Assembly: GCA_905178155.1 (NCBI GenBank)
Contig: CAJINV010000002.1
Coordinates: 3,911,838 to 3,975,837 of the forward strand
From: Amoebophrya sp. A120
Taxonomy: Eukaryota; Protista; Dinoflagellata
Direction: 5' to 3'
DNA: 64,000 nucleotides
Below the pieces are notes generated by a model. That model was given only the letters and a program-made list of their open reading frames with translations. It ran no database searches and had not been told where the DNA came from. Of the stretch, positions 6,001-63,987 are shown one piece after another. A program made the position numbers and the translations under genes. Each line of letters starts with the position of its first letter. Positions within the stretch are counted from its first letter, which is position 1.

Positions 6001-9000
6001 ATTATGTAAAACCTGCATGACAAGGCTATACTCTTTCAGACTGAGACATATTTGCACTTGATAGGGGAGTAAGAAAGCCAGCGCTTTCACCTCCACGTCC
6101 TCCGGCGTTTCACCGATCAAATATCACCACTTTGACGCCTTAGGAGCTGCTTCATCGGGGGGCGAAGATGGTTTTAGTAGTACTTCGGGAGGACCTGGTT
6201 CAGCATCATCATCTTCCCAAATGACGGTGGCATCACAACGTCCATCCCAAGTGCGCCGCACGGTCACGCGGACGTCGTCCGCTCCCGGGTTTTTAGAACA
6301 ACAGCAGAAGTTATCAACTGCAAAAATGTCTGGGTCTGGAAACTTGTGATGCAACGAAGGGAATAGGGAGCTCACTGTAATGCGCTGCCAAGCATGACAA
6401 GTTTTTTTCATGGTTCTGAGTTGCGTATTCCGCATGAGAAACTGCGTCTTTGCATGACAGGGAGTAGGAGCTCTTCGCGGCCACGCAATAAAGAGTTCAG
6501 AGCCATGCGAGGATAGCATGACAAATCTCGGAATCTTCCAGACCCAGACACTTTTGCATTTGATAGAAGTCATCTGCCACGGATACAACTCCGGTATCCT
6601 GTGCAAAAGTATCGTACTCGTACTAATTGCAGACATGCATTACAAATTTTTTTCTGAAGCTAAATCCGCATTACAAATTTTATTTCTCATGCTGAGGAAA
6701 TTTGTAATGCAATTTATACTAGTACGATACTTTTGCACAGGATATCCGGAAAGCGGCTACGAGTCCCCGCGGGAGCTGCGGCCGAGCCCGCAACAAATTG
6801 AGCAAGACCAGCGGCTGCTGCGGCGGGGGAGTTCGGGGCGGCTAGGTGGGAGTGGGAATACAGGGGGAGCTTCTAGTGCCGTGCCGAAGAAGAAGAAGTA
6901 CCTGCACAATGTGCAATTAAATCAGCAAATGGTGTTGACCCCCGGACAGCACAATTTGGATGAGCGGGAACACAGGAGTTTGTCACCCCCGCTGGAGCTT
7001 CCGGACGACGTCGTTATTCGGCCAATCGGTGGGGGGCGGAAGCCGAAGGGAATGGTAACCAATAACAACGTATTAGTACAACGACCGCAGGGCATTGGTG
7101 GACTGGCGTTGGCGGACCGTGGTGGCATCTTCGACATAGAAGAAGACGCAGATAATCTGGTGATCAAGCCTATCGGATCGCAGAAGGAGAAAACCAGCGC
7201 GCTTTTGTCCTCCTCGGGTTCTTCCGCTATTGGTACTGCTGTTCTTCCCACTAAAATCACGGTCGGCTTAAAGAAAGGCGACGTGGAAGGTACCACTACG
7301 GGCGAAAATAACGCTATCAATGTTTCAACATCGGATGAAAAAAAGCGACTTACAAGTAGTCCTGTAACGACTATGCCCCAAATTCCGCCGATGCCCTCGT
7401 TGAGTACGCTCGGGCCGGGATCTATCAAATGCAAAAATGTCTGGGTCTGGAAGAATACAAACTTGTGATGCGCATCTCAGAACACAGAAAAATCTCTCAT
7501 GCATAGGAAGCAAAAGTTGCCCACTTTCTCTCACCAAAATGGGGGAGTTGTCATGCGGATTCGGCATTGCGGAAGCCTCTCGAAACCTGTGATGCTAAAG
7601 CTTCCATGCCAGACCTTTTGTGTCATGCAAAAACAGCATGAGTCTTCCAGACCCAGACATTTTTACAATCCATAGGATCCTCGTCCGGCCTACAGGAGTC
7701 GCCTTCTACCAAGAATAGTGCTGGGTCGTCGGCAGCATCTTCGGCGCAGGATATTAATTCGCAGGAAAAAAAGAGGGAGGTAATTTTGATACCTGAACTA
7801 TCCGGAGACGGCTCTACTTCCTACCCGAGCACCGCAGATTCCGCCGCGCAGAAACAACAGAAGGCGAGCAAGAGTCCTCCGGGAACGACGAATAACGCGG
7901 CCTCTCCGCCCGCGACGTCCTCTCCGCCCGCGACGGCCTCTCTGGACAAACCGAATACGGACGACCCGGGACGAGCTTCTTCAGTTGTCCTGCCGTCCTC
8001 CCAGCAAGACAAGGACAACGCAGTTTTGATGCCCAACGATGACAATAAATCCGGCAAAGCAGCCGAACAAGTAGAGCCAGCGGAGGCCCAGAATCTGAAC
8101 ATCTTTAAAAAGTTGAATGCACCCCGCGGTCGCACCTCTGCAGCGGGGCCTACCGCCTTACTAAACTGAAAAATGTCTGCAGCTAAAAAAATCAAAATTT
8201 TTGTATCCTACATTTTCGGGCGCCTGCTTGTGTGTTTATTTTTTTTCACAATGAACAAAAATCAAGGAAATGGCTAGGCCAGGTATTCCGGCAAGGCCTC
8301 GGCGGACGAAGCAGAGGAGACAACTCAGCCACCGGGGGACTCGGTACGTCGGTATCGGTGGACGTCGTCCACCCGGGTCCGCAGTTGTAGTTCTTCAAGT
8401 TCTCACACTCCCTCCTGCTTCCTGACGATTTACCGAGTGCGTGCCTTGTTTGAGAATGGGTTGAATTTGCTGAAGAAGAGGCTCGCCTTTGGTTTAAACC
8501 TCGCGGCCTCCGAGGAGGTCGAAGAGGGGATGAGCTCAAGTTGCAGGCTTTTGCCTGCAAATTGAGCCCGATACAGGTCGGGGCCCTGCGAAAAGGGCGG
8601 CCGCAAATTGTCGCCCCGGAGGTCCGCGGCTCGGGACGACTCCGAAGAGGTGTCCAAGGACACCTCATCTGGAGGCCAATTTCGGAGGTGCAGACATTTT
8701 TGGCGGCGCAGACAAACACGAGCTATCAGCCTCACTTTCCCCCCCCCTCGCCAAAAACGTCTGCACCTCCACTTGGGGACCTCAGTGGAGAGGTGCAGAC
8801 GTTTTTGGCGGAGCCACGTTTTGCGTCACAAATCTGAACCCTCACAGCACGGCATTCTGCCGATTCAGGAGCTCAGATTTGTGATGCGGTCCAGAAAGCT
8901 GACCCAGAACGGGTCACAAGAAAAGGCCATTTGTAATGCGAGACCTGCATTACAAATTGCCACTTTTGGCGGGAGGGGCTTCACGCCCAAGTACCTGGCT

Positions 9001-11915
9001 GAGGTTCGCGGCATGCTGGACAGGAGCATGACCAAAGGAACTACTTCCAGAACAAGAAGCCTGAGGACTAGGGCTTGGGCTGACTACTAGGGGGCCTTCA
9101 AGCTCGCGCGGGAGCTTCGACCAAACGACGCAGCGGGAATGGAGCACAGCACCTCGGTCAAGTTCCCCAGCATGGAGGCCACGGCGCTCACCAGCGCGCT
9201 GCAGTCCGGGCGAGAAGAGAAGGGCGCAAACTGCACTACCAAAAATTTTGATTTTTTTTGCTGCAGACATTTTTCAGTTTAGTAACCTCGTGGTCGCACC
9301 TCTGCAGCGGGACCTACCGCCTTGAGTCCCTTCGCGAGGCTGCGAGAAAATAACAAGAACTCGAGTGTATCCTGAGCAAAAACGTCCCCACCCCAGAGTG
9401 ATAATGGGGATCTCGCAACACAAATCCAGAAGTTTTGGCTGTAGCGCATGACAAGTTGCCGTCCGTAGTGTAGGGCAGGTTAGCAAGGTCATCCGCATTA
9501 CAAACCCGACTGCTCATCCTGTTTACAGCATCACAAATTTCAAAACACAATTGCAAATGCCTTTCATGGGGATGCGCATCACGTGTTTGCTTGTCCTTGC
9601 GAATCTGCATGACAACTATGGTGTGGGGACGTTTTTACTACGGATAGAGTGCTGCAGTTGGTGGCACAGGAGCAACATCTGCCGGAAAAAATACTTCCGA
9701 CCCGTCAGCGTCTGTCACAAGTGATATTAAAGGACCCCAACGACCGCAGCCGCAGCAGTATAATGTTGTGCAACAACACAACTTCAACATGGCAGGAGCG
9801 CCTGTTGCACCCCCCGGCGGGATGTTGATGGGCGGTCCGAATGCGATGCCGGTCGGAGGTCCAGCTAGTACAACAACGATGGGGAACTACAGTACGAGCG
9901 GGGCAGCTACAGGTGCACTAAACAGTACTTCTAGTAGTAGCGGCTCCACGACCATGGGGAGCAGTTCTCATGCCGCACGGCCACCACTGCCTACTCCCAT
10001 CATGGCAAATCCTCAGTTGTACCACCACCACCACCAACCTGGGAAAGGGGGGCAACCTCCCGCAGGCAAGCCGATGATGCAGCAAGTTGGGTTTTCGAAG
10101 GATGGCAGGCCGTTGTTCGCTCCTGTGCCGGTTCCGGTGTACAATGGGACAACTCCCGCGGACAAGATGATTGGAAAAGGGAACATATCCTGAGTAAAAA
10201 CGTCCCCGCCCCAGAGTTGTCATGCAATTCTGCATGCCAAATTCCAAAAAAGTTTCTCATGCGGAGCCCCATGAGAAGCATTTTGTATTCGTAGTTTGGA
10301 ACTTCAACCTGTGATGCTAGAATCAGCATGCCATGCTAGATCTGTGATGCTTCTGAACTAGCTAAACAGGATTACACCACGAGGGCAAACTTGTCATGCC
10401 AGACAACCAAGGCTGACTGATTTGGCTAGCAGCTTCCCCATCTTGCCACTGGTTAGGGGACGTTTTTAATCAGGATAGAAAAAGAAACCCGCGCTGGTGC
10501 CGCAGCTTCCCCCGATCGTCCCCTTTCTCGGGCCGGACCGAACTGGGCAGCCGATGACGGCAATCATCGAAGAGAGCGAGTCCAGTAGGAGTAGAAATAC
10601 AGCAACGGCGACAAGCACGATGGTGCCTACTAATAGCAGAAGCCGCGGTATCACCAGAAAAAAGTGTTACAGTTACACACTTGTTGGAGTTTCTGCATCA
10701 CAAATTTTCTCTGTGCGGCACAGAAAACTTGTAATGCGAAGATCATAAGGGAAAACAGGAAGGAAACGAGGCTCCCAAGCATTTCCTGCATGAGAAAGGT
10801 TGTCTGTGTTGCCGGTCTTGCAACACAGTGTGTAACTGTAACACTTTTTTCTTCCGATACGCGGTGGGGACGAGAATGATCCAAATAGTGGACCTATCCT
10901 GAGGAAAAACGTCCCACCCCAGAGTTGTCATGCAAATCTGCATGCCAAAAAAGTCTCTCACGCGGAGCCCCATGAGAGCCACTTTCTAGTCGTGTTTTGG
11001 AATTTGTGATGCTAGAATCAGCATGACGTGCTAGATCTGTGATGCTTCGGAACTAGATAAACAGGACTACACTTCTACAAGGACAAACTTGTCATGCGAA
11101 ACAACCTAAGCTGGTTGATTTGTCTAGCAGATTTCCCATGTTGAGTCTGGTGTGGGGACATTTTTACTCGGGATAGGACTCTCATCGGCAAACTCTTCTA
11201 TGGACTTCGCCAAAGTTGGGGCGAGCCCGTATGGAAGAGATGGTGACGACGAAGACGATAGCAAGTGTAAAAATGTCTGGGTCTGGAAGAATGCAACTTG
11301 TGATGCTGTATTTAGATTCCAAAAAAATCTGTATTGCATGAGTAGCAAATGGAATGCAACTTTTGCTACGCTGAGAAGGCATTTGTCATGCGGAATAGGC
11401 ATCAAGAAGCCCTCAAAAAATCTGTATTGCTAGGGTATGCATCACAGACATCATGCCTCATGCAAAACGTGCATGACAAGTGTCAGAATCTTCCAGACCC
11501 GGACATTTTTGCATTTGATAGACGATCAGTCCCTCAGCCTCAACGGGCATCAGGACCCCATGGACGCGTATGAGGAACAGATGGAGGTATCCTGTGCAAA
11601 AGTATCGTACTCGTACTAATTGCAGTTATGCATTACAAATCTTTTTCGCAAGGCAAATCTGCATTACAAATTCAATTTGTAAAAACGCTGAGTAAATTTG
11701 TATTGCAATTTCTACTAGTACGATGCTTTTGCAATGCATAGGAGGCGTTCAATGCGTATTACCAAGCATTGGAAGATTTCGGTCGCGAGGAAAATCTCGA
11801 GAACCCAAGTGGATTTTTATCCTCCGAAACTGAAGAAGAATACGAGGAGGCGGATGAAGATTTTTCAAGGGAAGCAGAGCAAGGACGGCCCGGCGCCCCA
11901 CCGGGTTCCTCGTGA
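1..11915 (+). CDS. Large multi-exon protein with DUF4116-type repeats, one TM helix and a long low-complexity C-terminus (5' end outside window)
   Basis: Repeats such as LAVKSNGLALRYLSPELRADAEVVKMAVIQDAEALQFA and AVKQNGFAVEFV; TM segment WTLVVFASTLGVLGVIVLTVWL. One frame runs to TGA 11913-11915 after removing 18 TIR elements plus one TSD each: <1-239, 812-1103, 2818-3095, 3153-3418, 3707-4034, 4167-4426, 4844-5204, 5803-6063, 6312-6565, 6595-6744, 7423-7674, 8159-9284, 9368-9646, 10186-10477, 10649-10859, 10895-11175, 11259-11520, 11588-11740. Confidence 0.75.
812..1103. mobile_element. Introner, family C (TIR TATCCTG(A/T)GTAAAAACGTCCCCACCCCAGAG)
   Basis: TIRs at both ends, flanks atctt/agctt, removal keeps frame (GIFSQFSLRNQ). 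Relatives at 9368, 10186, 10895, 28714, 35431, 40533, 43459, 48123, 62236. Confidence 0.85.
3707..4034. mobile_element. Introner, family D (TIR TATCGTAAGGAAAAATCCCCCCTCCCCATATCGAAA), about 310-340 bp
   Basis: TSD gaacc/gaacc, frame restored (ETERT|LSDML). Relatives at 33256, 34377, 39059, 44272, 45648, 47659, 49593, 58226. Confidence 0.85.
6595..6744. mobile_element. Introner, short family B (TIR TATCCTGTGCAAAAGTATCGTACT), about 145-175 bp
   Basis: TSD tccgg/tccgg. Relatives at 11588, 14743, 20920, 21917, 29046, 35833, 49956, 51888, 53111, 56071. Confidence 0.85.
8159..9284. mobile_element. 1126-bp TIR element (TACTAAACTGAAAAATGTCTGCAGC...) flanked by a 38-bp direct repeat of exon sequence
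   Basis: About 45-bp imperfect TIRs; flanks 8121-8158 and 9285-9322 match at 35/38 positions. Confidence 0.85.
10649..10859. mobile_element. Introner, minor family (TIR TATCACCAGAAAAAAGTGTTACAGTTACACAC)
   Basis: TSD cgcgg/cgcgg, frame restored. Confidence 0.8.
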
Positions 11916-12865
11916 GTTGCTTTTTTACGAATGCCGTTTTTCTTGTACGTGTTCGTGTGCCTATTTCAATTTTCTTATTTTTTAGTACGGAAGATGATGT
12001 TTTTCTGACTACTTCATTCAACAACTTTATTTTTCCTTTTTTGATTTTTTTATTCACACATTTGAGTGCATAGGTGCACGATGGCACAATTTTTTTCATT
12101 TTTACCACGAGGTAGCAACAATATCTACATCTCAGTCTTCAATCGAGTAAGCATTTTTTTTTTCTATGAAACAAGATCAGCGGCGTGATATGAATTTCCG
12201 TGTAATAGCATTTTAGGAGCAATCGAATCAAATGCACAGAATCGTTTCCAAGTCCAACAAGCACTGCCAGTTCTTATCGTCCTGAATCTCGACTGCACGG
12301 TGGGGGGGCTCAGTCATGTCCTAGTTTGCATTCCGCCGCAACGTCTGTTCCAGTGTATTTCACACTAGGCTCTACTGATTCTTTTTCCTACTACCTCGCT
12401 GCCTGTAGCGCGAAGACGTCGCCACAGGTCGGTCGCTTTGCGGCATCAGGTAAAAGTCGTGATAAAGTCTGTGAGCATGAAAACAAAAACACAATCGTGT
12501 CAGAAAAGCTATCGGTTGCTGCGCGAGTAAAAATGTGGGGTCGTAGCACAGGAGGTGTGCATGGGTCGCGTACGTGATCCGTAGCCATATTTTCTCGGCT
12601 CTCTTTATTCGAATTCGGTCGAATGATTCTTGCTAAAGGTAGGCACAAGATCAAGTAGAAACACAAAAGAGGATACTCTAGCTTCCGTCGGAGCGAAGAT
12701 TTTCTGTGTGAGGGATCGAACTTGAGAAGAAACATTTGAGCTTGATTTCCCGCAATCGCAGTGCAGATCCACTTAGACAAAAATCATCACCAAATAGGGA
12801 ACAAAAGGAGAAGTCGTGGTGTAAGATTTTTTTCGATTGAATCAGATTCAGACCAAATTCAACAA

Positions 12866-15800
12866 ATGCCCCGTCAAATTACGCTCCTGGTGGGGCCGCC
12901 GGGGTGCGGCAAAACGACCGTTGCCCCCCTGTTAGCGGTATCAACTGTAAAAGTGTCTGGGTCTGGAAGAATTCATGTTTGCAGAATATATTAACTAGCA
13001 ATATGACACATATTAATCAATATGACATTTGGCAACGACAACGCTCCGAAACCCAAAAAAAGTAGCAATCTCATATTGTTATACTGTCATATTGTCATAT
13101 AGCATATTGCTCATGAGGGCCTCGCGCATGAAAATTGGGGCCGTCCGAGCTGCTTGCGGACTATACGGCCACTAGGACCGTGCGCGCCGTTGTGCAGTTG
13201 TTCGTGCAGATACCGCGCAGATACCCACTAGGCGCCTCCTAGGCTTCTCTCCCGAGCATGGTGGCAACGCCCTACAGCGTTGGGCGCACTCCTCGCGCGG
13301 TATTGCTGGCACAGGCACTGTCTCTGCCGGTAGCGGCCCGACTGCGAAGTCATGCACTAGGCTGTCGCTGGCACAGCATCATCGCACCTTGCTTTTTCGG
13401 GAACTATTCCCGCGCCCGACCACCTGGCTAAGTAGCTTTGTGCTAATGATAGTCTTGCTGTTTATGAGGGTAGCGCATCTCGTAATCACAGCAAAACTAT
13501 GCCAAGCCACACTGATTTTTGAGCAGTTTCCGTGTGTTGGTCTCCTAGGAGGCCCGCGGCGACGAATGGGCAGCCGGGGCGAAGACTTTTCTTCGTAAAG
13601 CAGCAACAGGGTGACCGACGGTGAGGCTATCGACCGCCCGGGGCGTTTTCGCCAACGAATTAGGCGGGGAGCGAAGATGTCCTGCCACGGCATGCGACAA
13701 ACGCTGCGCGTCAGGTCATCTCCCGGTCCCCGAAGCCGATGACTCCGGTCATATTGCTCAAAAATCCGCGGTCATATTGACATATTGTAATATTGTCATA
13801 TGTCATATTGTGAAAAGTGCCCGAATTTTGCTAGTTAATATATTCTGTGTTTGTCATGCTTGTCTGGCATGACTCTTAGTCATGCACGTTACCCAAGAGC
13901 TCCGTTTTTCTGTGATGCAGAAGCGCAGTTTGTCATGCAGAATAGGCAACACCTAGGAGCTCAGAAACTTGTCATGCTGAGCCAGCATTTGTAGTCTCAT
14001 CATGAGACGCTACCCAGCATCACAAGTTTCCAGACCCAGACATTTTTGCATTTGATAAGCGGAAATGTTTGACCGACCACTGCTGGAGTTGGAGAAGCTG
14101 ATCCAGAAGGAAATCGCCACGGGGTCAGAATCCGGGCAGTACCTGAAGCTCTGCAAGCTGCAAAACCGAACACCAGACGACGTGACGCTCATGAACCTGT
14201 TCCGAAACGAAATCTTAAACAACTGTCCCCTCGGCTGCTTCCTCTGTGACTACCCAGTCACGCTGTCACAAGCGCAGGCGCTGGATAGGTACAGATGAAA
14301 TAGTGTTTTAGGATTTTGCTTTAGTAAGTTGTCCTCCTGCATAGAACATTGGGGAAAGCGTAAGTATTGCTGCGCAGCGCGATTGATGCGCATCTGATGT
14401 TTATGCCAGTCGCAGTCTTGGACCTCGTCTGTCATGCGCCAATCCCAATCCACATTATGTGAAAACGAAAACGCTTTGTTCCACCACCACCTCCACGCAG
14501 GTTTTTGATCGGTTCCGGCGACAGGCAATCGCTGAAGGTGATCAACCTGACCGCAACGGACGAGGTGTGCGAAGCGAGACTACGGGAAAGATGGGTGCAC
14601 TTGCCAAGTGGGAGGGTTTACAACAAGGTCAGTTTCCCGCCCAGCAGTATGGCGTCCGAAGAACCGGCGATGCTGGACGATGTCAGTGGGGAGCCCTTGA
14701 TCCAGATGGAAAAGGACGACAAACTAGTGATCCCGAAAGAGCTATCCTCTGCAAAAGTATCGTACTCGTACTAATGGCTTTTATGCATGACAAATTTTTT
14801 TCTTAAGTGAAATCCGCATTACGAATTTCATTTGTAATGCTAAGTCAATTTGTATGGCAATTTCTGCTAGTAGTAGTACGATGCTTTTGCAATCCATAAG
14901 AGCTCTTCAAGTACCATTTGGGCTGCGAGCCACAGTTGAACCACTTCGGCAGATACGAAAAAGTCGACTGCCCAGCGGAAAAATCCGTCAAGGACATCGT
15001 ATACATAGAGAAATTGGGATTATTTTTGTGTGATTTGCGTTGCATGTTGCAGCGTCAGGAACAAATAGGAGGATGTTTTGTGCACATGATGCAAAATCTT
15101 CAACGAAGTTTTTGAACTTTATCTTCTTTACCCCTACTCAGGTAACCGAGTGCGCCTTCATCCTGGTAAACTCCACCTTCATATCGATTGCACCTATGGC
15201 TGCTGCGTCTGGAAAGTTGTAATGCTAGAAGTGAACGAGAACGATAGAAGCACTGCAATACGCAGCCAAGCGTGACAAATTTTTGGTCAGCTTTGTGTTG
15301 CGTATTAATTTCGTTTGGCAAGCTGCATTGTTGCATGACAGGCAAGCGGGCCTTTTCGTGCGCATGCATCACAGTGGCTCGAGCTCGAGGCATGTCCGAC
15401 ATGCATGACAAATCTAGCAAGCTTCCAGACCCAGACTACATATTTGCATTTGATACTTCGCAAGACAGCTGACCTTCGCCGAGCGAAACGCCGAAGCCAT
15501 GGGCAACGCGCCGCTGCCGATAGTATCGGACGCACCGGTATCAAATGTAAAAATGTCTGGGTCTGGAAGAATGCGCGATTTGTCATGCAGCTTTTCCATG
15601 ACCCATGAGTTCTGGAATGCAGGACCTAGCATGACAGATTCTGTGCGATCTCTCTCATGCCTATCCTGCATGAGAAACTCCCTCCCGACTTGGTCAAAAC
15701 TGGACGACTTTTGGTAATCATGCAACACAGATTTTTGCATGCTTCAGATTTAGCATGACAAGTTGCATTCTTCCAGACCCAGACATTTTTACATTTGATA

Positions 15801-15930: not shown

Positions 15931-16383
15931 GTGACGTAGTGGGGTGTGAGGAGGTGGTGTCAGAGGTAGGGTAGAAAGAGGAGGTAGAGGAGAAATAAAC
16001 GGGTACTATAGCAAGTCCAAGTTCCTATTTTCGTGAATACAGTTACAGTTTAAGATTACGAATACGATTCTTTTCGACGATTACAGTTTAAGATTACAGC
16101 ACGATATCTTCTTACGCGGACTTTCAGTTACAGTTGAAACCTAGAATAGCAGGAGAGCAGAGGTACTACTGGTGACCTCGTCAGAGAATATAGAGCAATA
16201 GCTTGTGTCGAAACGCGGAGCAATGATTTTTGGTTCAAAACACCGATGTGCGAGATAGTATCGAAACCCAACTTGACGCTACTTGAGTACTGGGAAAGAA
16301 CAAATGTGACAATGGTACTATGGATCAATGTAAATAAGTAGATCAATGGCCGAAGATCATCCAATAGACCCTATTAACAACTA

Positions 16384-18092
16384 CAGCGCCGGGTGCGTCG
16401 GCAAGCTGCTGGTTTGTTTTTTGCCGAGCTGTTGATATTTTCTTTCGCCGGCCCGAGGAACAAGTGTGTTCGAAAAGAAAGTTTTGGAGCCGTCTTTTGG
16501 TTAGCGCGGCTAGCTGTATGAGGATAGCTTCATTCACATAGACCGCGGCCCCTGAAAAACGAGACGCAGAAGTGCCCACGTGCGGCGACAGTTGCAGCAC
16601 TGGCGCCGATCGTGGGCCTTTCGAATCCCAGCCGCGAGCGGAGCCCGCGCCGAAGCAATGCCACCCCCGACGCCCAACCCGGGCGGCTGCTTGCTCTCCC
16701 ATGTGTTTCGCTAAGGACACGGGAGCAAGACCCGGCCAACGCACGGGGCCCGGCCGCGGGCTGGTGTGCTCCTCCTGTGGCGCCTTTCGCCGATGAGGCC
16801 GAGGGACGCGCCGTACAGCGCCGGGCTTTGGAATTTGGACTTGGCCGAGGAAGCGGACGCGAAGGGCTTGAGCGCCCCGCCGGCCTTCGGTTCCATCGCT
16901 TCCGAAAATCGCTGGCGTGATATCTCGGACAGGCGCCCGGGGTGCTGTACGCATTGCAACAAACCGGCGCCGGCTAGTCCCTGCGGGGATTGCCGGAGGG
17001 GGGTGGCTTCTTGGTGCGTGGCGCACAAGATGGGCAAGGGCGGGAACTTGGTCCGGCTTTCGGCGGCGTCGCAGCCGGGCCGGCGCGGCTTTTGCCTTCG
17101 CCCGGCTTTGCAGCCTCGCCCCCCGCTGCAAAAGGGGAGCGGCGAGCGCCTTTCCGTGTGGCCCCTGCCTGGCTATTGGTGGCGACGGGCGCCGCCCTAT
17201 GCCCAAGGGACGGAGTTGGCCGCCGGCCCGGCCTAGGGCGGGCGCGCATTGGCTGCGCTCCTCCGACGACGTCCCAAAGTGGGCGAGCCCGCAACGACGG
17301 AAAGCAAAGCCGTACGCAGGTGCGCGGCCTGCTAGGCTTACCGCGAAGAGAGGGGGGCGGCGGGGGAAAGGCTGCGCCCTGCCCCTTGCCCCAGCGGCGC
17401 CGGGGGGTCTCTCCCAGCCAAACAGTGGCCCAGTGGAGTGCAGAAGTCGCCCCACCCCCCGCCCGGGGGGGCGCGTGGTCCTTTGCTTGCGGAGTGCGTC
17501 CGCCGGGCGTTGTTGCCCTGCCTCCCCTGGGCCGCCAAGCGGGCCCCCGCCGCCCCCGCCGATTTTGCAGCTATGGGTGGCCAGGGCGGCCCGGTGGATG
17601 CGTATCTTCTGTTGGGGCGCCTTGCTTGGAAAAAGGACGGACCTTGGAAGCAGAGGCAGCCCGGGCCATTCGCCGTCTCTTTTCTGACTCTCGCGCTGTC
17701 GGCGTACGTAGGTGCGTGCGTGTGTGAGCGCGCGGGCTTGCAGCATGATGTCCAGTGCGGCGCAGGAGCTGCCACGGTTACATTTCGTGTGTATTTATTT
17801 TCATTGAGGCGGCCCTCTCGCTCTCTTGGCTGTGGTTGTGGTGTGTTTTGTGTGTGATTGTTTTTGATGGGTGCCTGTATCTAAGAGTGGAGAGCCTGCT
17901 TGAGAGGCAAAGTGGCACATCAGCGCATCAAACGGGAGGCAGTAGAAAGAAAATGTGAGCGGGTCGGCGCAAATGCTAATGCGAGCGAATTGCAATTCCC
18001 CGTTTTGTTCATGACAGCGATCTTGTACTTGCATGTTGGATATGCAGCAGCTACATTTCTATCCATGGTCTATTGATGCCATAGACCAACTG
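16384..18092. mobile_element. Intergenic GC-rich decayed element (possible TA-flanked CAG...CTG element)
   Basis: Abrupt GC-rich island with broken frames and CxxC remnants (CTHC...CGDC); ends ta|CAG ... CTG|ta; hairpin tggtctat-N7-atagacca near the right end. Confidence 0.4.
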
Positions 18093-23944: not shown

Positions 23945-25286
23945 CAGAGGCCCCTCTAGTTGTTCTGCGTCGAAGATCCGAGTCAGAGTGCGCACGTTTT
24001 CTGATCCAATGAAGGGCCTTGGAGCTTTTCCCGAATTAACCAACCAAGAAGCGCAGCAGTGCCGGAGAAACGGGGCGCGCCGATGAGCGCGGGGGCGCGC
24101 CTTGGTGGTGCGCGGCTGCGTGCGCACGCCCGGCAAATGGCGAACGCTTGCAAGCGTTGGCCCAAGATGCCGGGCGCTTTGCCTCGGGTGCCGCCGTGAA
24201 GCCCTGCAGGGAATCGGTGGGGGCGCCGCCGCGAAGGCGGCAACTGAAGGCAAGGCGGCAAGGCCTTCCCAGGGTATTTGAATGCGCGGCGGCGACAGCG
24301 ACAGAGCGACGATTCGCGGCAGCATCACATAGAGAAGCAACGCGAGCGGGAGCGTCAGAGACTGACTCCCTTCCGATTTTCCCCAGGGGCCTAGGTCTTG
24401 CCGATGGATGCCCGCGCGGGGCCGCGCCAAACAGGCGGCGGGGATTCATTGGGGCAGCGGCAGCAGCAGGCGCGGAGAGGAGGCGGCCGCGCCGGGGCCC
24501 CTGCCCTGTCTGCAGCCGACCGCGGCCCCCGGGCGGGCGGCCGTTGCTATGCGCGCAGGCACGAGAATTTCCCGAGCAAGTGGCCCCCCCGCGCTGAGGG
24601 AAATTTCGAAAGGCATAGAAATCGAGGGCATCATGGACCACGGCGCCTATCTCCTCGCGAAAGAGATCCTGCTGTGGGCCCACAGCCCGCCCCGTCTTTT
24701 GGGCGTGTGGAAGGTGACCCAGCGCGCGTTCGCGCGGAATTCGAGAGCACGTCAGACGCCCAGACCAAAAAGGCGGCGTGGTCGCTGCCCACCGCCTTGA
24801 CTTTTTCACGCAGGCCCAGCGGCCGCGCCTACAGACGCGGGCGGGCGGGCGGGCGGGCGCCCGCCCGAAGGCGCGCGGCTGGCGGCCCGGGGCGGTGGCG
24901 ACACAGGTGCCGCCCGTGGCCCCCGTGTGTCTCCCTATGCCGTCCTTGGGGTGGCGCCACCCATCCGTCCGCGGGGGCGGGCCTGGTTGGCGCCAGAAGC
25001 TTTGCGCGCCGGCCTCGCTCTCTCACCCTCGCTCTGCCACGGGGCTGGTTTGTGGAGTCGTAATCCTTTATCTATGCTCGCGGCCGCTCTTGCGTCCCGC
25101 ATCCGCGAGCGAAGACACGGATGGCGCCCGCGAGCCCGGTTTCGCGTGCGGCCGCGGAAATGCGTGTGGGCGTCGCGCTTTATAATTTTTGCGTCTTGCA
25201 TTGGAAAACTCAATGACTGACTAGCACCGCTTTGCCCGGACTATCGGGTGTGGGGTTCGTGATGGCGTATAATTTTGGCGGGGCTG
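23945..25286. mobile_element. Second intergenic GC-rich decayed element
   Basis: GC-rich island, CPVC remnant, ends ta|CAG ... CTG|ta, short patches resembling the 16384 island. Confidence 0.35.
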
Positions 25287-32799: not shown

Positions 32800-35700
32800 G
32801 AGGATGAACAGCACGACTTCTCCCAGTATTGCAGCGACGCTAGACGCAATGAGCTGGAGCGGCGTGTTGATGCCGGAGAAGCTTTCGCTCGCCTCCGGTC
32901 ACTATCAACTGCAAATATGTCTTGGTCGGGAAAGAATGAGATTTGTGTTGCTTTCTGTCGATCACACAAAAATGTGTATTCTTGCAAGAGAGGCAAAAGT
33001 AGACACTCAGATTCTTGCCACCCGGAGAGGGCACTTCTCATGCTGGATAGGTATGAGAAAAGCTTTGCGAAAGCTGTGATGCTACAGCATGCATCACAGG
33101 CATCGGGAGCCATGTACAATTTGCATGACAAACTCCCCAAACTTTGTTCCAAGCCCAGACACTTTTTGCCATGCATAGTCACCTTGCGCCAGGCGGTCAT
33201 TGCTTGTTCACAAGGGCGGCCGGCGGAACGAAGATCCTGGCAGGCGGGCGCACCGTATCGTAAGGAAAAATCCCCCCTCTCCATATCGAAAAGGCACGCC
33301 TCAGAGAATTTGTCATGCTGATTTGTGACGACCTCGACCACAAATCGCGTCTGTCTTGCAAGAAAGCAACGGCATTGGCTTCGCTCCATTATGCAGGCGG
33401 TTGGTAGAAATGTTGTTGGGCCTACAGCATAGACGTTCCGCATGCTAAGCGCCTAGGCCAAAGCCTCATCCCTACATTGACATGATATGGGCCTGCGGTC
33501 CTCTACTGCAAGACAAATCCGATCTGTGCACGCAAATCCAGCATGAGAAGTTTTGTTTTGATGTGCTGGGGAGGAGGGATTTTTCATTTTGATACACCGA
33601 ACGCGTTGTCGGGACTTGGGAAACTGGGTTTTCTGTGCCGAGACTTTGCAATGGTGATCAGAGTATGCATTGCAAATTATATGTCTGGGTCTGGAAACTT
33701 GTGATGCTAATTTATGAATTGTGGGGACACTACAATAAGCAGCCACGCATGACAAGTTTCTGGGCTCCTATGTGTTTCGCTTTCCGCATGACAAACTACA
33801 TTTTTCTTGCAAGACAGGCAAGAGGGTCTTTTCCTGCTCACGCATTACAGGTTCAAGAGTCAACATGTGAGACAAACATGACAAACCTGCATTCTTCCAG
33901 ACCCAGACATATTTGCATCTGCTTACTCGCGCTACGCGAGGGAGTTTGATGTGATTGAACGTGCGGTATTCCAATGAAAAATGCCCACACCCCTGAACTT
34001 GGGAGCATTTGTATTGCAAACCTTTCCAAGTGAAACACTCGCCTTCTTGCATATCTTAGCATCACATGCTGAATAGGTCAAATTTGTGTTGCAAAGAAGC
34101 TCAACAGTAGCCGGGTCTGTTATGCAAAAGATGCCTTGCGCACCTAGATTCTGCATCAGAAAGGCTCATAGTCCTGTCATGCAAGACAAAGATCTTGCTC
34201 TTGCATTTGGAAACTTTGCATGAGAAACTTTTGCGAATCCGAATTCCGGGGTGGGGGCATTTTTCATTGGAATACGCGGTCCTCATGAAGAAGCAGACTA
34301 TTCCACCTGCGGCTCCTCACGAACTGCGCGTTGCCGGAACAACAAGCACGGAAACGAATGAAAGGAACGAACCCAATATTGAAAGGAAAAATCTCCCCTC
34401 CCCATATCGAAAAGGTTTGTTTCCGAAAATTTGTGTTGCTGATTTGAGACCACAAATCATGTCTGTCTTGCAAGAAGACCAGTGCAGCCGGTTCCGCGCC
34501 ATTATGGAAGTGATTTGGCATGCTGTTGGGCCTAGGGGACAGCCGTTTGCAATGCTGAACAACAAGACCCAAACGCCCCCGCCTAGGCTGCGGATCTGGC
34601 TGCGAAGCCTTACTGCAAGACTGCGCGCATTTGTGTGCAGAAATCCAGCATCAGAAACTTCGTCTCGATATGGGGAGGGGGGATTTTTCCGTACGATACC
34701 CAACAAAAAACGTCTACCCGGTGTGGCCTACTTGCTGCTGACGGGCGACGGGGAAGCCTTTGACCAAGCGGCCCTGTGGCGGCAGTACTTCCGAACGTGT
34801 GACCCCACCCGTGCCACGGCCAATCTGTACGTGCACACCTACAAAAAAACGTTTGACCCCGAAACCCTGACGGTGAGCGGCGCTGTGGATGAGAAGGCAA
34901 AAGCCTGGAAAAACCTGTTCGACACCGAACCGGGGCTCGGGTCGGTCCACTTTGTTCCCCGCATCCACACCGCGTGGGGCGAGCTGGTGCCGGTCATGTG
35001 GTGGCTGGTTGTGAATGCATTGCAAGAGGACCACGGCGGCGGTAAAAACGAACAGTTTGTCTTTCTCAGCGAGGGACACGTACCACTGAAAAACTGCACA
35101 TTCGTGCACGAGGTATCGCAAGAAAAAACTGTTTCACTGTGAACTTGTGATGCAGAGATGAACGAAGCACCAAGGTGTTTGTCTTGCTACACCTGCATAG
35201 AGCATTGGAGTTCCAGCCGTGTTTTCCCCTATGGGAAATGCGCGCATGGCAAGTTTTCCGCGCCATGTGTAGCAAACTTGTGATGCAGATATTGCACAAT
35301 CATCACAGTGAAACAGTTTTTCGTGGGATACGAGGAATTGCTGGAACAACGAGAAAAAAAAGCGGCATTCGGCCTGAAAAAACAAAAGCAAGAGCAGGAA
35401 CTGCAAGCGCAATCAGGATCAGCTTTGCAGTATCCTGAGTAAAAATGTCCCCACACCAGAGTCAAGATTGGAAATCCGCTAGACAAATCAGCCACCTCTG
35501 GTTGTTTCGCATGACAAGCTCCTTATCCTCGTAGTGTAATCCTGTTTAGCTAGTTGCGAAGCGTCACAGATGTAGAATATCATGCTGAGTCTAGCATCAC
35601 AAATTCCAAAACAGGATTAGAAAATGGCTCTCATGGTTCTCCGCATGAGAAACTTTTTTGGCATGCACATTTGCAGGACAACTCTGGGGTGGGGACATTT

Positions 35701-38700
35701 TTACTCAGGATATGCAGCAAGCGTCGAAAAGCGGGTTCCTGGAAGCGGACCAGCACGGCCCGGGCCGCGGGGGGGAGACGTTGGCCAAAAATTCATCTTC
35801 CGCGTCCGCAACCGGAACCGGAACTGGACCCGTATGCATTGCAAAAGTATCGTACTCGTAGTAATTGCAGTCCTGCATGGCAAATCTGATTGTGATTCCA
35901 TAGCTCATTCACCATTACAAATACCATTTTTCCTTCTGGAAAAATTTGTAATGCTATTTAAACTATAACTAGTACGATACTTCTTGTGCAATGCATAACC
36001 CGCCCGTAATGACGATGTTGATCTGAAGGAAGTTGACGAGGAACCGCAGGTATCAAATGCAAAAACGTCTGGGTCTGGAAGATTCTGAGACTTGTCATGC
36101 ATGTTTTGCATGACCCAGGATTGTGTGTGATGCATGCCCTACCATCACAGACTTTTGGAGCCCTTCCTGATGCCTACTGCGCATGACAAACGCGCTCCCC
36201 GCGTAGCACGAACTAGACTCCTCTTGCTGGTCATGCAATACAGAATTTTTTAGAGTCCAGAGTTAGCATCACAAGTTCCAACCTTCCAGACCCAGACACT
36301 TTTGCATTTGATAACAGGTCGAAGAAGTTTCAAGGACCAGCAGCAAAGTGTGCATGGTGCCCGAGCAAGCGGTTGAGACGATGGATCCCGGCACGGAGAG
36401 TGGCTGCATATTTGTGCAGTCGCTCGAGTTATCAAATGTAAAAATGTCTGGGTCTGGAAGAATGCGCGATTTGTCATGCAGCTTTTCCATGACCCATGAG
36501 GTCTGGAATGCAGGACCTAGGATGACAGATTCTTTGCGATCTCTCTCATGCCTATCCTGCATGACAAACTCCCTCCCGACTTGGTCAAAACTGGACGACT
36601 TTTGAGAATCATGCAACACAGCTTTTTGCATGCTTGAGATTTAGCATGACAAGTTGCAATCTTCCAGACCCAGACATTTTTACATTTGATACGAGTCCCA
36701 AGTGCCGCGCCATCACCAGTGGGGCACGTTGTCGCGCCCGGACGCGGAACTTTTCAAGAAGTACATCTTGCTGGGCTTAAACCTGTACTTCGCAAACTTG
36801 GTGCATCAAAAGGTATTACAAATCATGCATACTTGCATTGCCTTGGCATAGGAAGTATTTTGTTTGCTGTGCTAGTATATTGCAAGCAATTCGTGTTCAG
36901 CGCCAGGTCGTTGAAAGCAATGCGCCTCCAAGAGAAGGGGTCGCCCAGCAGCTGCCACACTCTAGCCTTTCGGAATTGCGTTCCCAAGGTTTGCCGGAAA
37001 TCCTGGGAGCACATTTCGGCAAGGCCCCCACGTCGGCTTTGTGCTCTGGCCGGCAGTAGGTCTGAAGTCCTCGCGAAAAATCATCCGACGTCGGGGAGAT
37101 AAAGAAATGCGCCCCTGGGATTTTCGCCGCGTCGAGACCTGGGATCATAGTTCTGCAAAGCCCCCTCGTAAGATGATGTTGCGCGGGTTTTTCTGTGTTT
37201 CAAGGTCAGAACACAAACTCGAGTAGCACTCTCGTGCTCTGGCTTGCAGAACTGTGCTCCTAAGATTTGCTGACATCGAACTCAAGTCCGATTTGTGGTT
37301 TGATCGGCAATGCCTACGCAGGTGAGTTACAGATATTGGCTCGCAGGATTTCCGCCGCATCGCGAAATTCTTGACGCAGCGAAGATCCTCGGAAATAATT
37401 TCTGTAAGTTACTTACCTGCGTAAGATTTGTCTTCTCACTGGTAATACCGATCTGGGCACAAATCTTATGCAGGAAACTTACAGAGATTAGTTCCCGGGA
37501 TTTGCGTGCTGCGTCTCCAATCGCCTCACTTGGACACGAGGATCATCAGTGTGTCCAAGTGTGGCGAGATCCGAGATCAGGGTGTCCAAGTGTGTCCAAG
37601 TGTGTCCAAGCTCACATCCGAGAACTTCGCGGATGTGAGCTGTCAGAGAACTTTCACACGCAAAGTGCCAAAGTTTGCCCCCCTGCTCGTGAAAGTTCGA
37701 TCCACGTGTCCGAACGAGGCGATTGTAGAAAAAAAGCGGAAATCCTGGGAACCAATTTCTGTAAGTCGCGTGCGTAGGATTTGCACTCAGGTCGCGATTA
37801 CCGGTCGAAACGCAGATCCTACGCAACCTACTTACTTACAGAAATTAGTTCCCAGGATCCCACATCCGAGAATTCCTCGGATGTCAGCTCCCATCCGGGA
37901 AGTTCGCGGAAGTGAGCTGCCAGAGACCTTTCACACGCAAAGGGCCGAACTTTGGCGCCCTGCTCGTGAAAGTTCGATCCGCGTGTCCAAATGAGGTGAC
38001 TGCAGAAAAAACACGGAAATCCTGGGAACTAATTGCTGTAAGTCGCGTGCGTAGGGCGTGTAGTCAGACCGGGACTACCGGTCGAAACGTAGAGCCTGCG
38101 CACCTGCTTCAAAATTTTTGAAAACCGAAGCTTTTAGGAACTGCTCTGGGAACTAATTTCTGAAAGCTCTAACTTAAACCTGTACTTCGCAAACTTGGTG
38201 CATCAAAAGGTGGGCACCACCACGTACGACGCGGCCAACATTGGCGCGAGCGATGAATTCATTTTCGGTTCCACCCTGCTGATCGCGAACATGATTCAGC
38301 AGAGAAAAACCTTCGAGTCCTTCTACAACGTGTCCGAGACGTATGGATGTTGTGTGAGGATTGAAATCGACAAAGTTGAAATTATAACTTGTAATTCATA
38401 AAGTGAATGAAAGTTGTAACCCAGATTTTTCCAAGTGGCGCATGACAAATTTGGTTAGATCCGAAATCCAGTTTGTCATGCTGTTTGGGTCGTAAGGAAG
38501 ACGCCTTTTGTCATGCTACTTTCGCGGCTCAGTTTCTACCCCTCAACAGGCTTACAATCTGCCTCACTTGCCTACTCTGCAAGACAGGCGCTTTGTGGGC
38601 TGCATTTCATGCATGACAAACTATTTCAACTTTAACGATTTCAATCCTGACACTTCCATAATACGAACGCGAAAGCCGGAGTCGTGCAGGTCTCTTCGCG

Positions 38701-40877
38701 GAAGCGTTTCCTGCTGGAGAACGTATCGAAGAAAAAAACATTGTTAGTGTAACTTTGTGAAGATGCGCAACATGCAAGATGGGCGACGTCTGTCATGCTG
38801 GTCATGCATTGCAAGGTCCACCATTCAAGCGCGTTTTGCCGTGCTATCTGCGCATGACAGGTTTTTGCTCTCATGCCAAACGGATTTGTAATGCTGTTCT
38901 TCCAAAAAAGTTACACCTACAAGTTTTTTTCCTTGGATAGAACGGTGTGAAGTCGGACTGTACTACATTTTTGCACTGGCGCCGATGCCTTGCCGGAACG
39001 GGTTTGGAGCAGCCCTATGTGTCCGAGGTGGTGCTCGTTGGTGGAGGAGCGGCTCGCATATTGTGAGGAAAAATCTCCCGCCCTCCCCATATCGAAAAAG
39101 AAATTTCTGATGCTGATTTGTGGCCACAAATCAGTTTTGTCTTGCGTACAAGGCTGCAAACGGCACCCATGGGGCGCATTGTCCAACGAGTCTGTCATGC
39201 GTTTTCGCCTATGTCAGACTTTTTTCTCATGCTCAGCAGCTGCTCGGTCGCCGGATGCGCTCCAAAATGGGCTCAGAATATTATGCCGACAAGCTCTTGC
39301 TGCAATGCAAAGCGCATTTGTGTAAGTACGCAAATCCAGCAACACAAGTTGTCTTTTGAATGTGGGGCCGCGGGGGCTTCTTTCACTTTGATATCGCACC
39401 GCGTGGCAGCACGCGCGTGGCAGCACAAGCGAAGAACCGCGGTCGATCTGGGACAGAATGAATCCTTTTTCCCGGGCGCACCAAAAAGTCAAGGGCGTGG
39501 CGACCCTAGCCTTTGATGCCGCCACCGCCCCAGGGAAGGAGGTTTCCAACGACTACCCGCGGGACTTGCACCTTGCTGATGAGTGGCGTTTCAACGAGCC
39601 ACAGATGCTATGCATTGCAAAAATGTCTGGCTCTGGAAGGTTGCAACTTGTAATGCTGTGTTTGGATTCTATAAAAGATTTGTATTGCATGACCAGGAAG
39701 AGGAATCCATTTTGTGCTAGGCGGGACGTTCGCATTTGTCATGCGGAAAAGGCATCAGGATGCCCTCTAAAAGTATGTGATGCTAGGCCATTCTTTACAA
39801 GCATCATGGGTCATGCAAAATATGCATGACAAGCCTGGAAATCTTCCAGACCCAGACATATTTGCACTTGATAGATGCGGGCCCTGGTGCAGCACACCGG
39901 CCTTCTTTTTGCCCGGAAAATGGGAAAAACCAAAAGCAACAAGAAGGCGGAGCTGAAATTCGACCTCGCCAAAGAGGCGTACCCCCGCACGTTTCCCTTC
40001 GAACAAGTTGACTCCCTTCCCGCCCTGTGGGGTCAGGTAACGGTGAGGGCCAGTAGAAATACTGCCGACGGAGGTCAAGAACATCGTGATGCTGATGCAG
40101 CTATGCATTGAAAATATGTCTGGGTCTGGAAGGTTGGAACTTGTTACGCTAACTTTGGACTCTAAGTAAAAAAACTGTATTTTTGCATGACCAGCAAGAG
40201 GAGTCCAGTTTGTGCTACGCGAGGAGGACATTTGTCATGCGGAAAAGGCATTAGGAAGGCCTCTAAAAATATGTGATGCTAGATCATGCATTACAGAGAT
40301 CCTGACTCCTGCAAAATATTATGCATGACAAACCTGGCAAGAACCTTCGAGACCCAGACATATTTGCATTTGATAGCAGCTCTTGAGTCAACCTCCTACA
40401 ACGCGACGGAGCACTTCCGCCCAGAGGTGCTCGATGTCGGCCGCGACGAGAATGGAAATGTCTTGTTTACGTCCGCGGTGCGCGACGCGTGCGCGTTTGT
40501 TGCGGCCAAGCAGAAGAACAATAAAGGGCCCGTATCCTGATTAAAAACGTCCCCACACCAGAGTCAAGATCATGGGAACTCTGCTAGACAAATCAGCCAG
40601 CTTTGGTTGTTTCGCATGACAATTCTGTCCTCGTAGTGTAGTCCTGTTTTGCTAGTTCAGCAGCATCACAGATTCTAGCAGCGTCACAGATCTAGCGAAA
40701 ATGCTTCTCGTAGGGCTCCGCATGGGAAACTTTTTTGGCATGCAAAATTGCATGACACTTCTGGGGTGGGGACGCTTTTACAAACAATAGGCCGGCCAAT
40801 TATTACGCAAAGTCTTCCAAAAGACAGCTTCGTACGTGGGTGGGCGCACTCCGGTGTGCCCCGAGCTGGAGATGTGA
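32800..40877 (+). CDS. Core-2/I-branching enzyme (Branch, GT14-like) glycosyltransferase; start codon uncertain
   Basis: Motifs VAYLLLT..LWRQYF..LYVH, TAWGELV, NEQFVFLSEGHVPL, HHQWGTLSR, ASDEFIFGSTL, CTTFLHW, LLFARKM. Interrupted by 16 introners (32903, 33256, 33664, 33967, 34377, 35114, 35431, 35833, 36051, 36430, 38342, 38724, 39059, 39609, 40102, 40533) plus the 36814-38172 insertion; stop TGA 40875-40877. Confidence 0.8.
35114..35330. mobile_element. Introner, family E (TIR TATCGCAAGAAAAAACTGTTTCACTGTGA)
   Basis: TSD cgagg/cgagg; relatives 46312-46520 and 48508-48716. Confidence 0.87.
36814..38172. mobile_element. 1359-bp internally repetitive insertion flanked by a perfect 38-bp direct repeat
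   Basis: 36776-36813 equals 38173-38210 (cttaaacctgtacttcgcaaacttggtgcatcaaaagg); internal GGGAACTAATTTCTGTAAG repeats in both orientations. Confidence 0.85.
38342..38660. mobile_element. Introner, family H (TIR TATGGATGT..GGATTGAAATCG.CAAAGTTGAAAT)
   Basis: Flanks agacg/atacg; relative 44944-45252 (tccgg/tccgg). Confidence 0.8.
38724..38939. mobile_element. Introner, family F (TIR TATCCAAG.AAAAA..TTGTAGGTGTAACTTT)
   Basis: TSD gaacg/gaacg; relatives 43983-44191 and 51621-51845. Confidence 0.8.
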
Positions 40878-41528: not shown

Positions 41529-41950
41529 TCATCTTAACGTTTGTCTGTTTCTCAGCGGAATGGAGAGGAGAAGGGAGGGTTTTCTTTTTCTGATCCCCAT
41601 CGGGTGCTCGTTGATTGCGCACAGGGTGTGAAGGATGATTTCTTCAGAAGTGGCCCCGCGGAAGGCCCCCGACATCCTGCACCGGTCCGCAATGAATTTT
41701 ATAAATTCAATGCGGCGCTCGTTCTTGCCGCACTGCCAGTGGGCTTGACTGCTCGTGACGAGATACTCGACCAGGAAACCGGTCACAAACCGCCATACCC
41801 GGTGGTTAAAAAATTCCGGTCCTTCGTCGGTGAGCATACGCCGCGTCGGGTTCCCGTGCAGCCGCAAGAGCGTGAGAAAGCGGATGGTGGTTGTTGCGCA
41901 AGGCGGACCCGTTTACATGCATCTGCTGAACGCCGAAAAATGGTTCACGT
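41529..41950 (-). pseudogene. Retroviral-type integrase (rve) core fragment, probably an LTR-retrotransposon remnant
   Basis: RRMLTDEGPEFFN...SSQAHWQCGKNERRIEFIK matches the second Asp and the Glu region of a DDE integrase; truncated, upstream stop, no LTR seen. Confidence 0.7.
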
Positions 41951-62235: not shown

Positions 62236-63987
62236 TATCATATGCAAAAACGTCCCCACCCCATAGTCAAGATTGATGGGAACGTAGCAACACAAATCCA
62301 GAAGTTTTTGGAGCCACGCATGACAAGTTGCAGTCCGTAGCGTGGTGCATGTTAGCAAGGACAGCCGCATCACAAATACATCTGTTTATACTGTTTGCAG
62401 CATTACAAACAAGGTCATGGCGCGGGGACAGAGTCCCCGCGCTGCGACCTTGCGGCGAAGAAGGGCCACCCGCGGTGGCTTTTCTTGCCCATGATGCGGC
62501 AGGTTTTTTTTTTTGCGACAGAACGGGGTGGCTTGGCGCCCGTGGTGCCGGCGCCCCCCCTGGAAAAATGCGGCTTTTTCTGCGCCCCTGGGCGGGGCGC
62601 CCCCCCCAAAGGACTACCCACGACCAACCGAGGGCGCGGCCGTCCGGGAGGTTGTTCTCCCGAACCAGGGCGCGCGGGCCTGTTTCTGCGCCCCTCCGCG
62701 GGGCGCCTCCCCCAATGGACTACCCAAGACCAACCGAGGGCGCGGCCTTACCTCCAGGGCGCGTGGACCTGTTTCTGCGCCCCTTGGCGGGGCGCCCCCC
62801 CCAAAGGACTACCCACGACCAACCGAGGGCGCGGCCGTCCTGGAGGTTGTTCTCCCGAACCAGGGCGCGCGGGCCTGTTTCTGCGCCCCTCGGCGGGGCG
62901 CCCCCCCAAAGGACTACCCAAGACCAACCGAGGGCGCGGCCTTACCAGGGCGCGTGGACCTGTTTCTGCGCCGCTGGGCGGGGCGCCCCCCCCGAAGGAC
63001 TACCCGCTACCAACCGAGGGCGCGGCCTTCGTGGAGCCTGTTCTCCCGAACCAGGGTGGGCGCGCGGACCTGTTTCTCTCTGCGCCCCGGGGCGGGGCGC
63101 CCCCCCCAAAGGACTACCCAAGACCAACCGAGGGCGCGGCCTTCCCAGGGCGCGTGGACCTGTTTCTGTGCCCCTGGGCGGAGCGCCCCCCCCAAAGGAC
63201 TACCCACGACCAACCGAGGGCGCGGCCTACCTGGAGCCTGTTCATTCTCCCGAACCAGGGTGGGCGCGCGGACCTGTTTCTGCGCCCCTGGGCGGGGCGC
63301 CCCCCCAAAGGACTACCCACGATCATGTGAGGGGGGGCGCGGCCACCTTCCTGGGGCCTGTTCTCCCGAACCAGGGCGCACAGACCTGTTTCTGCGCCCC
63401 TGGGCGGGGCGCCCCCCCCAATGAATAGGCAGCCAACCTTTGGCCCCCGGGGTCGGGCCTGACTCTTGAAAAGCGGCCCCCGGGGTCGGATGTTCCTTTT
63501 CCGAAGTCGGGTGGGGGGCATGTTTTGAGTTGTGCAGGAGGTTTTTGCCGATTCAGGTCGTGTTTGTTTGATACCCCGGAACAGGGGTCGGAACATACCC
63601 CGGAACACACCCCAGAACACACCCCGAAACACACCCCAGACCATGCCCCGAAAGCCACTTTCCGACAGTCAGGTCCGGGGTCGGGCCCGACTCTCGAAAA
63701 GTGACCTCCGGGGCCGGGTGTCACTTTTCCGGAGTCAGGTGTGGGGTATGTTTTGGGGGGTGCATGAGGAAATGGCCGAGTTAGGTCGTGATTGATACCC
63801 CGGAACATGGGTCGGAACATACCCCGGAACACCCCCCAAGTGATCACTTTTGGGCAGTTGCTGCAGTTTAAATAGTAATGCCAAAAGACGATAGGAAATG
63901 CCTCCCTTGGGGACGCGCATTACAAATGTTCCTGTAATTGCATATCTGCAGGACAGCTCTGGGGTGGGGACGTTTTTACACAGGATA
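62236..63987. mobile_element. Family C introner expanded by an internal insertion of about 1.47 kb
   Basis: TSD gtcga/gtcga; the two halves match the reverse complement of 812-1103 on either side of about 62410-63878. Confidence 0.85.
62575..63420. repeat. GC-rich tandem repeat (about 8 units of roughly 85-125 bp)
   Basis: Core cctgtttctgcgcccctgggcggggcgcccccccaaaggactacccacgaccaaccgagggcgcggcc reiterated; followed by ataccccggaaca-type repeats at 63570-63840. Confidence 0.9.

Follow-up and report, generated by a model that had tools for sequence, protein, structure and literature searches.

The locus and its host gene

The window, i.e., the whole 64-kb stretch of DNA from Amoebophrya sp. 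A120 that was analysed, is crowded with 150-340-bp TIR elements that carry TA at both ends and match the Amoebophrya introners as described in PMC7789003. The gene hosting the insertion considered here (Table 1) encodes P0002, an annotated protein of this organism, and its exon in the window is 100% identical to that protein. The preliminary description referred to it as a glycosyltransferase, an assignment that is weakly supported: the host protein matches Pfam Branch (Core-2/I-branching) with E 0.11 and 12.5 bits, below the cut-off of 23.4. Among six ORFs and exons of the window, nothing scored above the Pfam cut-off. Further features of the window include a 127-aa frame without a Pfam match (41529-41912, minus strand), which presumably resembles a retroviral-type integrase fragment and has a 32-35-bp imperfect repeat nearby (41560/42098), two GC-rich (66-70%) intergenic blocks with no window copy and no Pfam match (16340-17800 and 24000-25200), and a GC-rich array of tandem repeats whose periods are ~86-200 bp (62570-63430).

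The host exon contains a 39-bp maximal exact direct repeat (36776-36814 and 38173-38211, spacing 1397), whose sequence occurs only these two times within the window; such a repeat is expected by chance ~1e-14 times. Contigs derived from other copies of the intervening element leave the window sequence before 36830, and their TATT start lies ~14-16 letters earlier (X1, n=5; X3, n=4). As the other copies also begin with TATT at this point, the T at 36814 belongs to the element rather than to the duplication, and the locus therefore splits into a 38-bp duplication and a 1359-bp element. The arrangement given in the preliminary description (two perfect 38-bp exon copies, or 39 bp with the following T, around a 1359-bp element) is thus confirmed by the exact match and by the start of the other copies.

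Table 1. Positions, within the window, of the intron-forming insertion and of the second locus with a 38-bp duplication
Feature	Position	Strand	Remark
Comparison case, upstream 38-bp copy	8121..8158	+	
Comparison case, 1126-bp TA...TA TIR element	8159..9284	.	P0003 implies loss of the element plus 5 nt
Comparison case, downstream 38-bp copy	9285..9322	+	3 differences; stretch coded twice in P0003
Host gene exons	34698..40000	+	protein P0002; interrupted by 5-bp-duplication introners
38-bp exon duplication, upstream copy	36776..36813	+	LNLYFANLVHQK plus G
Intron, 1397 nt	36813..38209	+	1397-nt removal observed; GT-AG register probable
1359-bp non-coding low-copy repeat element	36814..38172	.	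TATT start, CTCTAA end; strand unassigned
Internal duplication of the element, 277-bp period	37609..38109	+	37609-37833 / 37886-38109, 84%
Branch-point-like CTAAC	38169..38173	+	element's last 4 bases plus the repeat's first base; putative branch site
Downstream copy of the 38-bp repeat	38173..38210	+	source of the AG acceptor at 38208-38209

Junctions and splicing of the 1397-nt intron

The insertion at 36814-38172 is real, young, and spliced. With k=31, a true 39-bp repeat predicts contig breaks at 36805 and 38182; an X2 contig ends at 36805, and X1 and X3 contigs start at 38182. Because the observed breaks equal the prediction, both element-exon junctions are present in the reads, which speaks against the assembly artefact that the preliminary description had considered.

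The removal of the element from RNA is evident from a cDNA contig of run X6, which joins 36775 to 38173 with 39 shared letters at a depth of 36.5. It lacks the element and one copy of the repeat (1397 nt skipped) and thereby bears out the proposed removal at the cDNA level. An X2 contig continues unbranched from 38173 onward at a depth of 696, and X2 depth is zero at 36810-36864. X2 and X6 are two samples of one study, the RNA nature of which is a guess; they behave as spliced cDNA, since all introners of the host gene are missing from their contigs. In the raw RNA run X10, just 122 partial reads aligned, on introner ends.

The exact splice register is unreadable from RNA because it is located inside 39 identical bases. 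However, among 40 registers compatible with a 1397-nt loss, 36813-38209 is the single one with GT-AG. As proposed earlier, GT at 36813 and AG at 38208-38209 would enclose exactly the element plus one repeat and restore the joined frame LVHQK|VGTTTY; P0002 agrees in having this stretch once, although its annotation may use the same RNA. The donor occupies the -1 position shared with the introners of this genome. The AG at 38208 is the first one downstream of CTAAC (38169-38173), a pentamer comparable to the branch-point consensus. CTRAY has 259 occurrences over the two strands of the window, corresponding to a ~6% chance per 30 nt, so that the position of CTAAC is no more than suggestive of a branch site for this intron.

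The element family

Several homologous copies with common ends are indicated by diverged contigs and by loose ends at both termini. The diverged contigs show directly that other genomic copies exist; summed X1 depth is also higher over the element (75-762) than over its flanks (28-32), depth not being equal to copy number. The right end of the other copies falls at 38170-38172 and is followed by differing flanks (two contigs each in X2 and X6). No relatives of the element were detected elsewhere in the window or in 141 loci (L001-L141, 0.66 Mb) of a related assembly that contains these introners. Like an introner, the element is an exonic insertion that is removed from RNA and has homologous copies with common ends.

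The termini combine several characters. A TIR is absent (9/24 matching end positions). The right end conforms to CTRR (CTAA here, CTAA or CTGA elsewhere), with T as the next base in three other copies. The element itself starts with TA and is flanked by host G and C, and a strong hairpin near its end is absent (-4 kcal/mol for the final 50 nt). Internally, a 28-bp motif recurs ~ten times, in either orientation, and hairpins are numerous. Its longest stop-free frame (182 aa) gives no sign of a gene. The element has neither a poly(A) or simple-repeat tail nor a complete hammerhead core. Rfam returned three sub-threshold miRNA hairpin matches, nothing at gathering score and no credible match, and a tRNA search found none. 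Pfam searches of six chosen ORFs and exons of the window identified neither a reverse transcriptase nor any other mobilizing enzyme for the element. In motif scans, nothing was recovered from viral contigs or prokaryote genomes, and the metagenome contigs lacked this element.

A further copy appears to be shorter. Two loose ends in X2, one extending 30 letters behind 38172 and the other 29 letters before 37455, overlap each other by 17, which may be the graph signature of a copy of ~717 bp (~37455-38172) with a 42-43-bp duplication. This reading draws on two contig ends of one run, and an internal linker between tandem copies could mimic it. Thus both copies with an assessable duplication look long (38 bp, and probably 42-43 bp). 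The signature is missing in some copies: one X6 flank appears to run for ~140 letters without such a break, and one X2 flank runs for 37.

TIR introners and the second 38-bp duplication

A 5-bp duplication (at most one mismatch) is present in 424 of 450 full-length TIR copies (64/67 in the window and 360/383 in the related loci). Copy ends were set by homology, using a seed library of 303 short copies with perfect 5-bp duplications, and the 424/450 share is biased upward because this library itself consists of perfect 5-bp copies. Greedy pairing of TIRs was dropped, as it produced many false internal pairs. The value is in line with the annotation '5-bp TSD, TA/TA termini' of family 38 in Dataset S2 of PMC12130899. 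One window introner (12939-14057) has a second TIR element nested inside it (12982-13847). This nested element has CAG...CTG ends and subterminal tandem repeats of 8 bp, and is apparently flanked by a 6-bp duplication.

Comparison of 25 elements with P0002 and P0003 provided six informative junctions, and a single register agrees with every one of them, in which the intron extends from 1 nt ahead of the first TA to 4 nt beyond the last TA (-1/+4). The register is based on the annotated proteins, on mismatched 5-bp duplications, and on the window introners between 812 and 38939; three of the 25 elements were without a match, including one outside the gene model and the element at 36814-38172. 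The latter has no TIR, its flanking 5-mers differ at 5/5 positions, and 1397 nt are lost with it; hence it does not belong with the TA/TA TIR introners.

The second 38-bp duplication surrounds a TIR element of the TA...TA type (8159-9284, TIRs matching at 45/46 positions). The two copies differ by 3 mismatches in 38, every one at a third codon position, and no GT-AG register is available. Removal of the element plus 5 nt is predicted to leave an in-frame 11-codon duplication, and the same duplication is present in the annotated P0003 (4712 aa). Origin of the three synonymous differences from two alleles was considered and found unnecessary, both copies being coding in P0003. The two loci thus follow different splice rules: removal of the element plus 5 nt retains 11 additional residues at 8159-9284, whereas GT-AG splicing would restore the protein at 36814-38172. 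These observations suggest that introner splicing is anchored on the element ends, not on the direct repeat.

Lengths of the duplications

Two insertions of equal duplication length led the preliminary description to propose a ruler-like 38-bp integration stagger. This proposal is unsupported, albeit not disproved. No sequence is shared by the two elements, which also differ in TIRs (45/46 versus none) and splice rules; the TIR class normally makes 5-bp duplications, and the other long duplications measure ~42-43 bp (probable), 8 bp, and ~75 bp. As a stand-in for a genome-wide survey, direct repeats were scanned in the window and in the 141 related loci (0.66 Mb distinct), which are short contigs chosen for a different motif and devoid of either element family, so the power is low. 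Most of the 127 low-copy matches lie in collinear segmental or tandem duplications. Thirteen isolated matches were inspected, of which nine were realigned with gaps, giving 23, 35, 40, at least 49, 59, 60, 65, 75, and 77 bp. The 23-bp match is within a larger duplication, a piece of an ordinary gene lies inside the 40-bp match, and a triple repeat comprises the 35- and 59-bp matches. A clean element-flanking 38-bp repeat was not found in these fragmented loci, which contain neither family. Beside TIR elements of the related loci, one exact 8-bp case and one ~75-bp case were observed. Two points speak for the proposal: exact agreement of the 2/2 long exonic insertions of the window at 38 bp has a chance of only 2-11%, depending on the assumed range, and the lengths 35, 38, 38, 40, and 42-43 form a cluster. 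A looser habit of 38-43-bp duplications is possible.

Two arrangements in the related loci deserve separate mention. In L018 (1190-3746), an exact repeat present three times (50 and 35 bp) frames two unique inserts of 1459 and 964 bp. The contig behind L053-L055 carries both an introner with the exact 8-bp duplication and another flanked by the ~75-bp coding duplication (merged 10319-10598, 11903-12366).

Possible origin of the intron

We tentatively favour a nick-primed, non-LTR-like insertion with a long, likely variable stagger as the event that made the intron at 36814-38172. The element would have been inserted between two nicks 38 bp apart, and fill-in of the stagger would have copied the exon stretch ending in AAG|G. 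The host G and the first T of the element would then form the GT donor, at the -1 position of the introners, and the element end together with one host base would create the branch-like CTAAC. Splicing would restore the protein exactly, since the first AG after CTAAC is the end of the duplicate. The 38-bp duplication around the TIR element at 8159-9284 would represent a rare off-length insertion, which may have survived because 38 = 5 + 33 stays in frame under element-plus-5 splicing. The preference comes from non-LTR elements, in which duplications are typically long and of variable length and truncated copies keep one end in common (described in PMC9977147, PMC3636483, and PMC4640811); the present family appears to combine a common right end with a truncated left end in the putative short copy and with long duplications of differing length. 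Among the lengths given in PMC9977147 are 126 bp for R9 and a median of 900 bp for Dualen, and non-LTR-derived introners are reported for strain A120 in PMC12130899. Since duplications of such length are not exceptional among eukaryotic non-LTR elements, the analogy with Cas1-type repeat duplication drawn in the preliminary description is not needed; its statement that no such gene is seen holds, with no Pfam match in the scanned ORFs (a set excluding the short frames of the element) and no TIR. Against the non-LTR-like route stand the absence of a tail, a complete hammerhead, a credible Rfam match, or (in the six ORFs) a reverse transcriptase, as well as the Helitron-like right end (CTRR and T) and the left TA resembling that of TIR introners. 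The coincidence of both window insertions at exactly 38 bp speaks against a variable stagger.

Off-pathway DNA transposition or host repair is a somewhat unlikely alternative. A long staggered break of arbitrary length would take up an element whose ends are defined, and only spliceable or in-frame products would survive. A transposase might attach one end while repair closes the other, or a hybrid-end insertion might occur beside an older site. Of the explanations considered, this one accounts best for the TIR element at 8159-9284, given that its class otherwise makes 5-bp duplications, and it agrees with the 8-bp and ~75-bp cases in related loci, 8 and 38 both being 5+3n; moreover, the TA start and the -1 donor position recur in the element at 36814-38172. 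Intron gain at staggered breaks is known in Daphnia, but the repeats described there span just 4-12 bp (PMC4202315). Long TIR-flanking duplications are also rare (one 8-bp case in 450 copies, plus two longer ones outside this set), and both assessable copies of the 36814-38172 family look long. Transposition of the HUH type (Helitron- or Replitron-like copy-in with non-canonical, variable duplications) would account for the CTRR end followed by T in three other copies, the many hairpins, and the lack of a TIR, and variable duplications are described for Chlamydomonas Replitron-1 and some Helitrons (PMC10288648). This origin is nevertheless doubtful: the 5' end is TA rather than TC, the host bases are G and C instead of A and T, the end hairpin is weak, and Helitrons normally insert without a duplication (PMC3789558).

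It is likewise unlikely, if slightly less so than an HUH origin, that Amoebophrya integrates DNA by an undescribed route whose stagger of ~38-43 bp is dictated by an enzyme or by chromatin and which accepts both TIR and TIR-less cargo, the cargo at 36814-38172 bringing its own branch site at its tip; if true, exon sites ending in AG|G would become perfect introns. A stricter version, in which one enzyme or chromatin setting cuts exactly 38 bp apart for unrelated elements, seems improbable. It would explain why both long exonic insertions in 64 kb, with ends fixed at TA, measure exactly 38 bp, and the cleanest isolated repeats elsewhere are near in length (35 and 40 bp). However, the two elements belong to unrelated families and follow unrelated splice rules, a third duplication probably measures 42-43 bp, and the related assembly (fragmented, with neither family inside) has no clean 38; in addition, the 40-bp repeat holds an ordinary gene piece, and the 35-bp one belongs to the triple repeat. 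Least probable is that the joined RNA stems from cells without the element, whose allele is empty or has lost the insertion through recombination of the two repeats, or that the duplication is artefactual. The data are at contig level and no record runs through the whole element, which leaves some room for this explanation, but the graph breaks place both junctions in the reads, and most of 36868-37990 is represented in X2 contigs (0-2 differences), beside the exon path of ~700 depth.

Comparison with known systems

The insertion at 36814-38172 extends the creation of introns by mobile DNA to duplications long enough to supply a whole 3' splice region, and the two 38-bp insertions constitute a natural experiment on the unexplained non-canonical splicing of this organism. 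Amoebophrya introners, as described in PMC7789003 and PMC12130899, are similarly exonic insertions removed from RNA with a donor one base before TA; their published direct repeats are 3-5 nt and their inverted repeats 8-20 nt, whereas the present element has no TIR, measures 1.36 kb, and is flanked by 38 bp. In Dataset S2 of PMC12130899, all rows considered (57 of the 58 for A120) give duplications of 2-11 bp or NA, and the automated method may skip long repeats; families 26 and 71 of this dataset (721-730 bp) resemble the putative short copy in nothing but length. Searches of article full text turned up no description of 38-bp duplications beside Amoebophrya introns. The closest parallel in splice-site design is provided by class 12 introners of Polarella (bioRxiv 10.1101/2020.10.14.339549), in which the duplication also gives the AG, and its last G forms the donor together with the first base of the element. 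That duplication is the 5-nt NNAGG (3-8 nt for the introners described in this source), compared with 38 nt and a branch-like site at the element end here.

Non-LTR and Penelope-like elements (e.g., R9, Dualen, and CRE/R4; PMC9977147, PMC3636483, and PMC8557442) have long or variable duplications, a common end together with truncated copies, and internal arrangements in tandem or inverted order, features that the present family appears to share; unlike them, the element at 36814-38172 displays no reverse transcriptase gene, tail, pseudo-LTR, or hammerhead, and it was inserted into an ordinary exon. Helitrons and Replitrons, according to PMC3789558 and PMC10288648, are similar in the CTRR end, the hairpins, the lack of a TIR, and, in Chlamydomonas, variable duplications; they differ in the 5' TC, the A|T target, the short terminal direct repeat, and the Rep gene, none of which was seen here. 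In the staggered-break introns of Daphnia (PMC4202315), a duplicate of the exon end likewise lies at the far end of the new intron; the repeats described for them are 4-12 bp long, whereas the insert in Amoebophrya is a repeated element with common ends.
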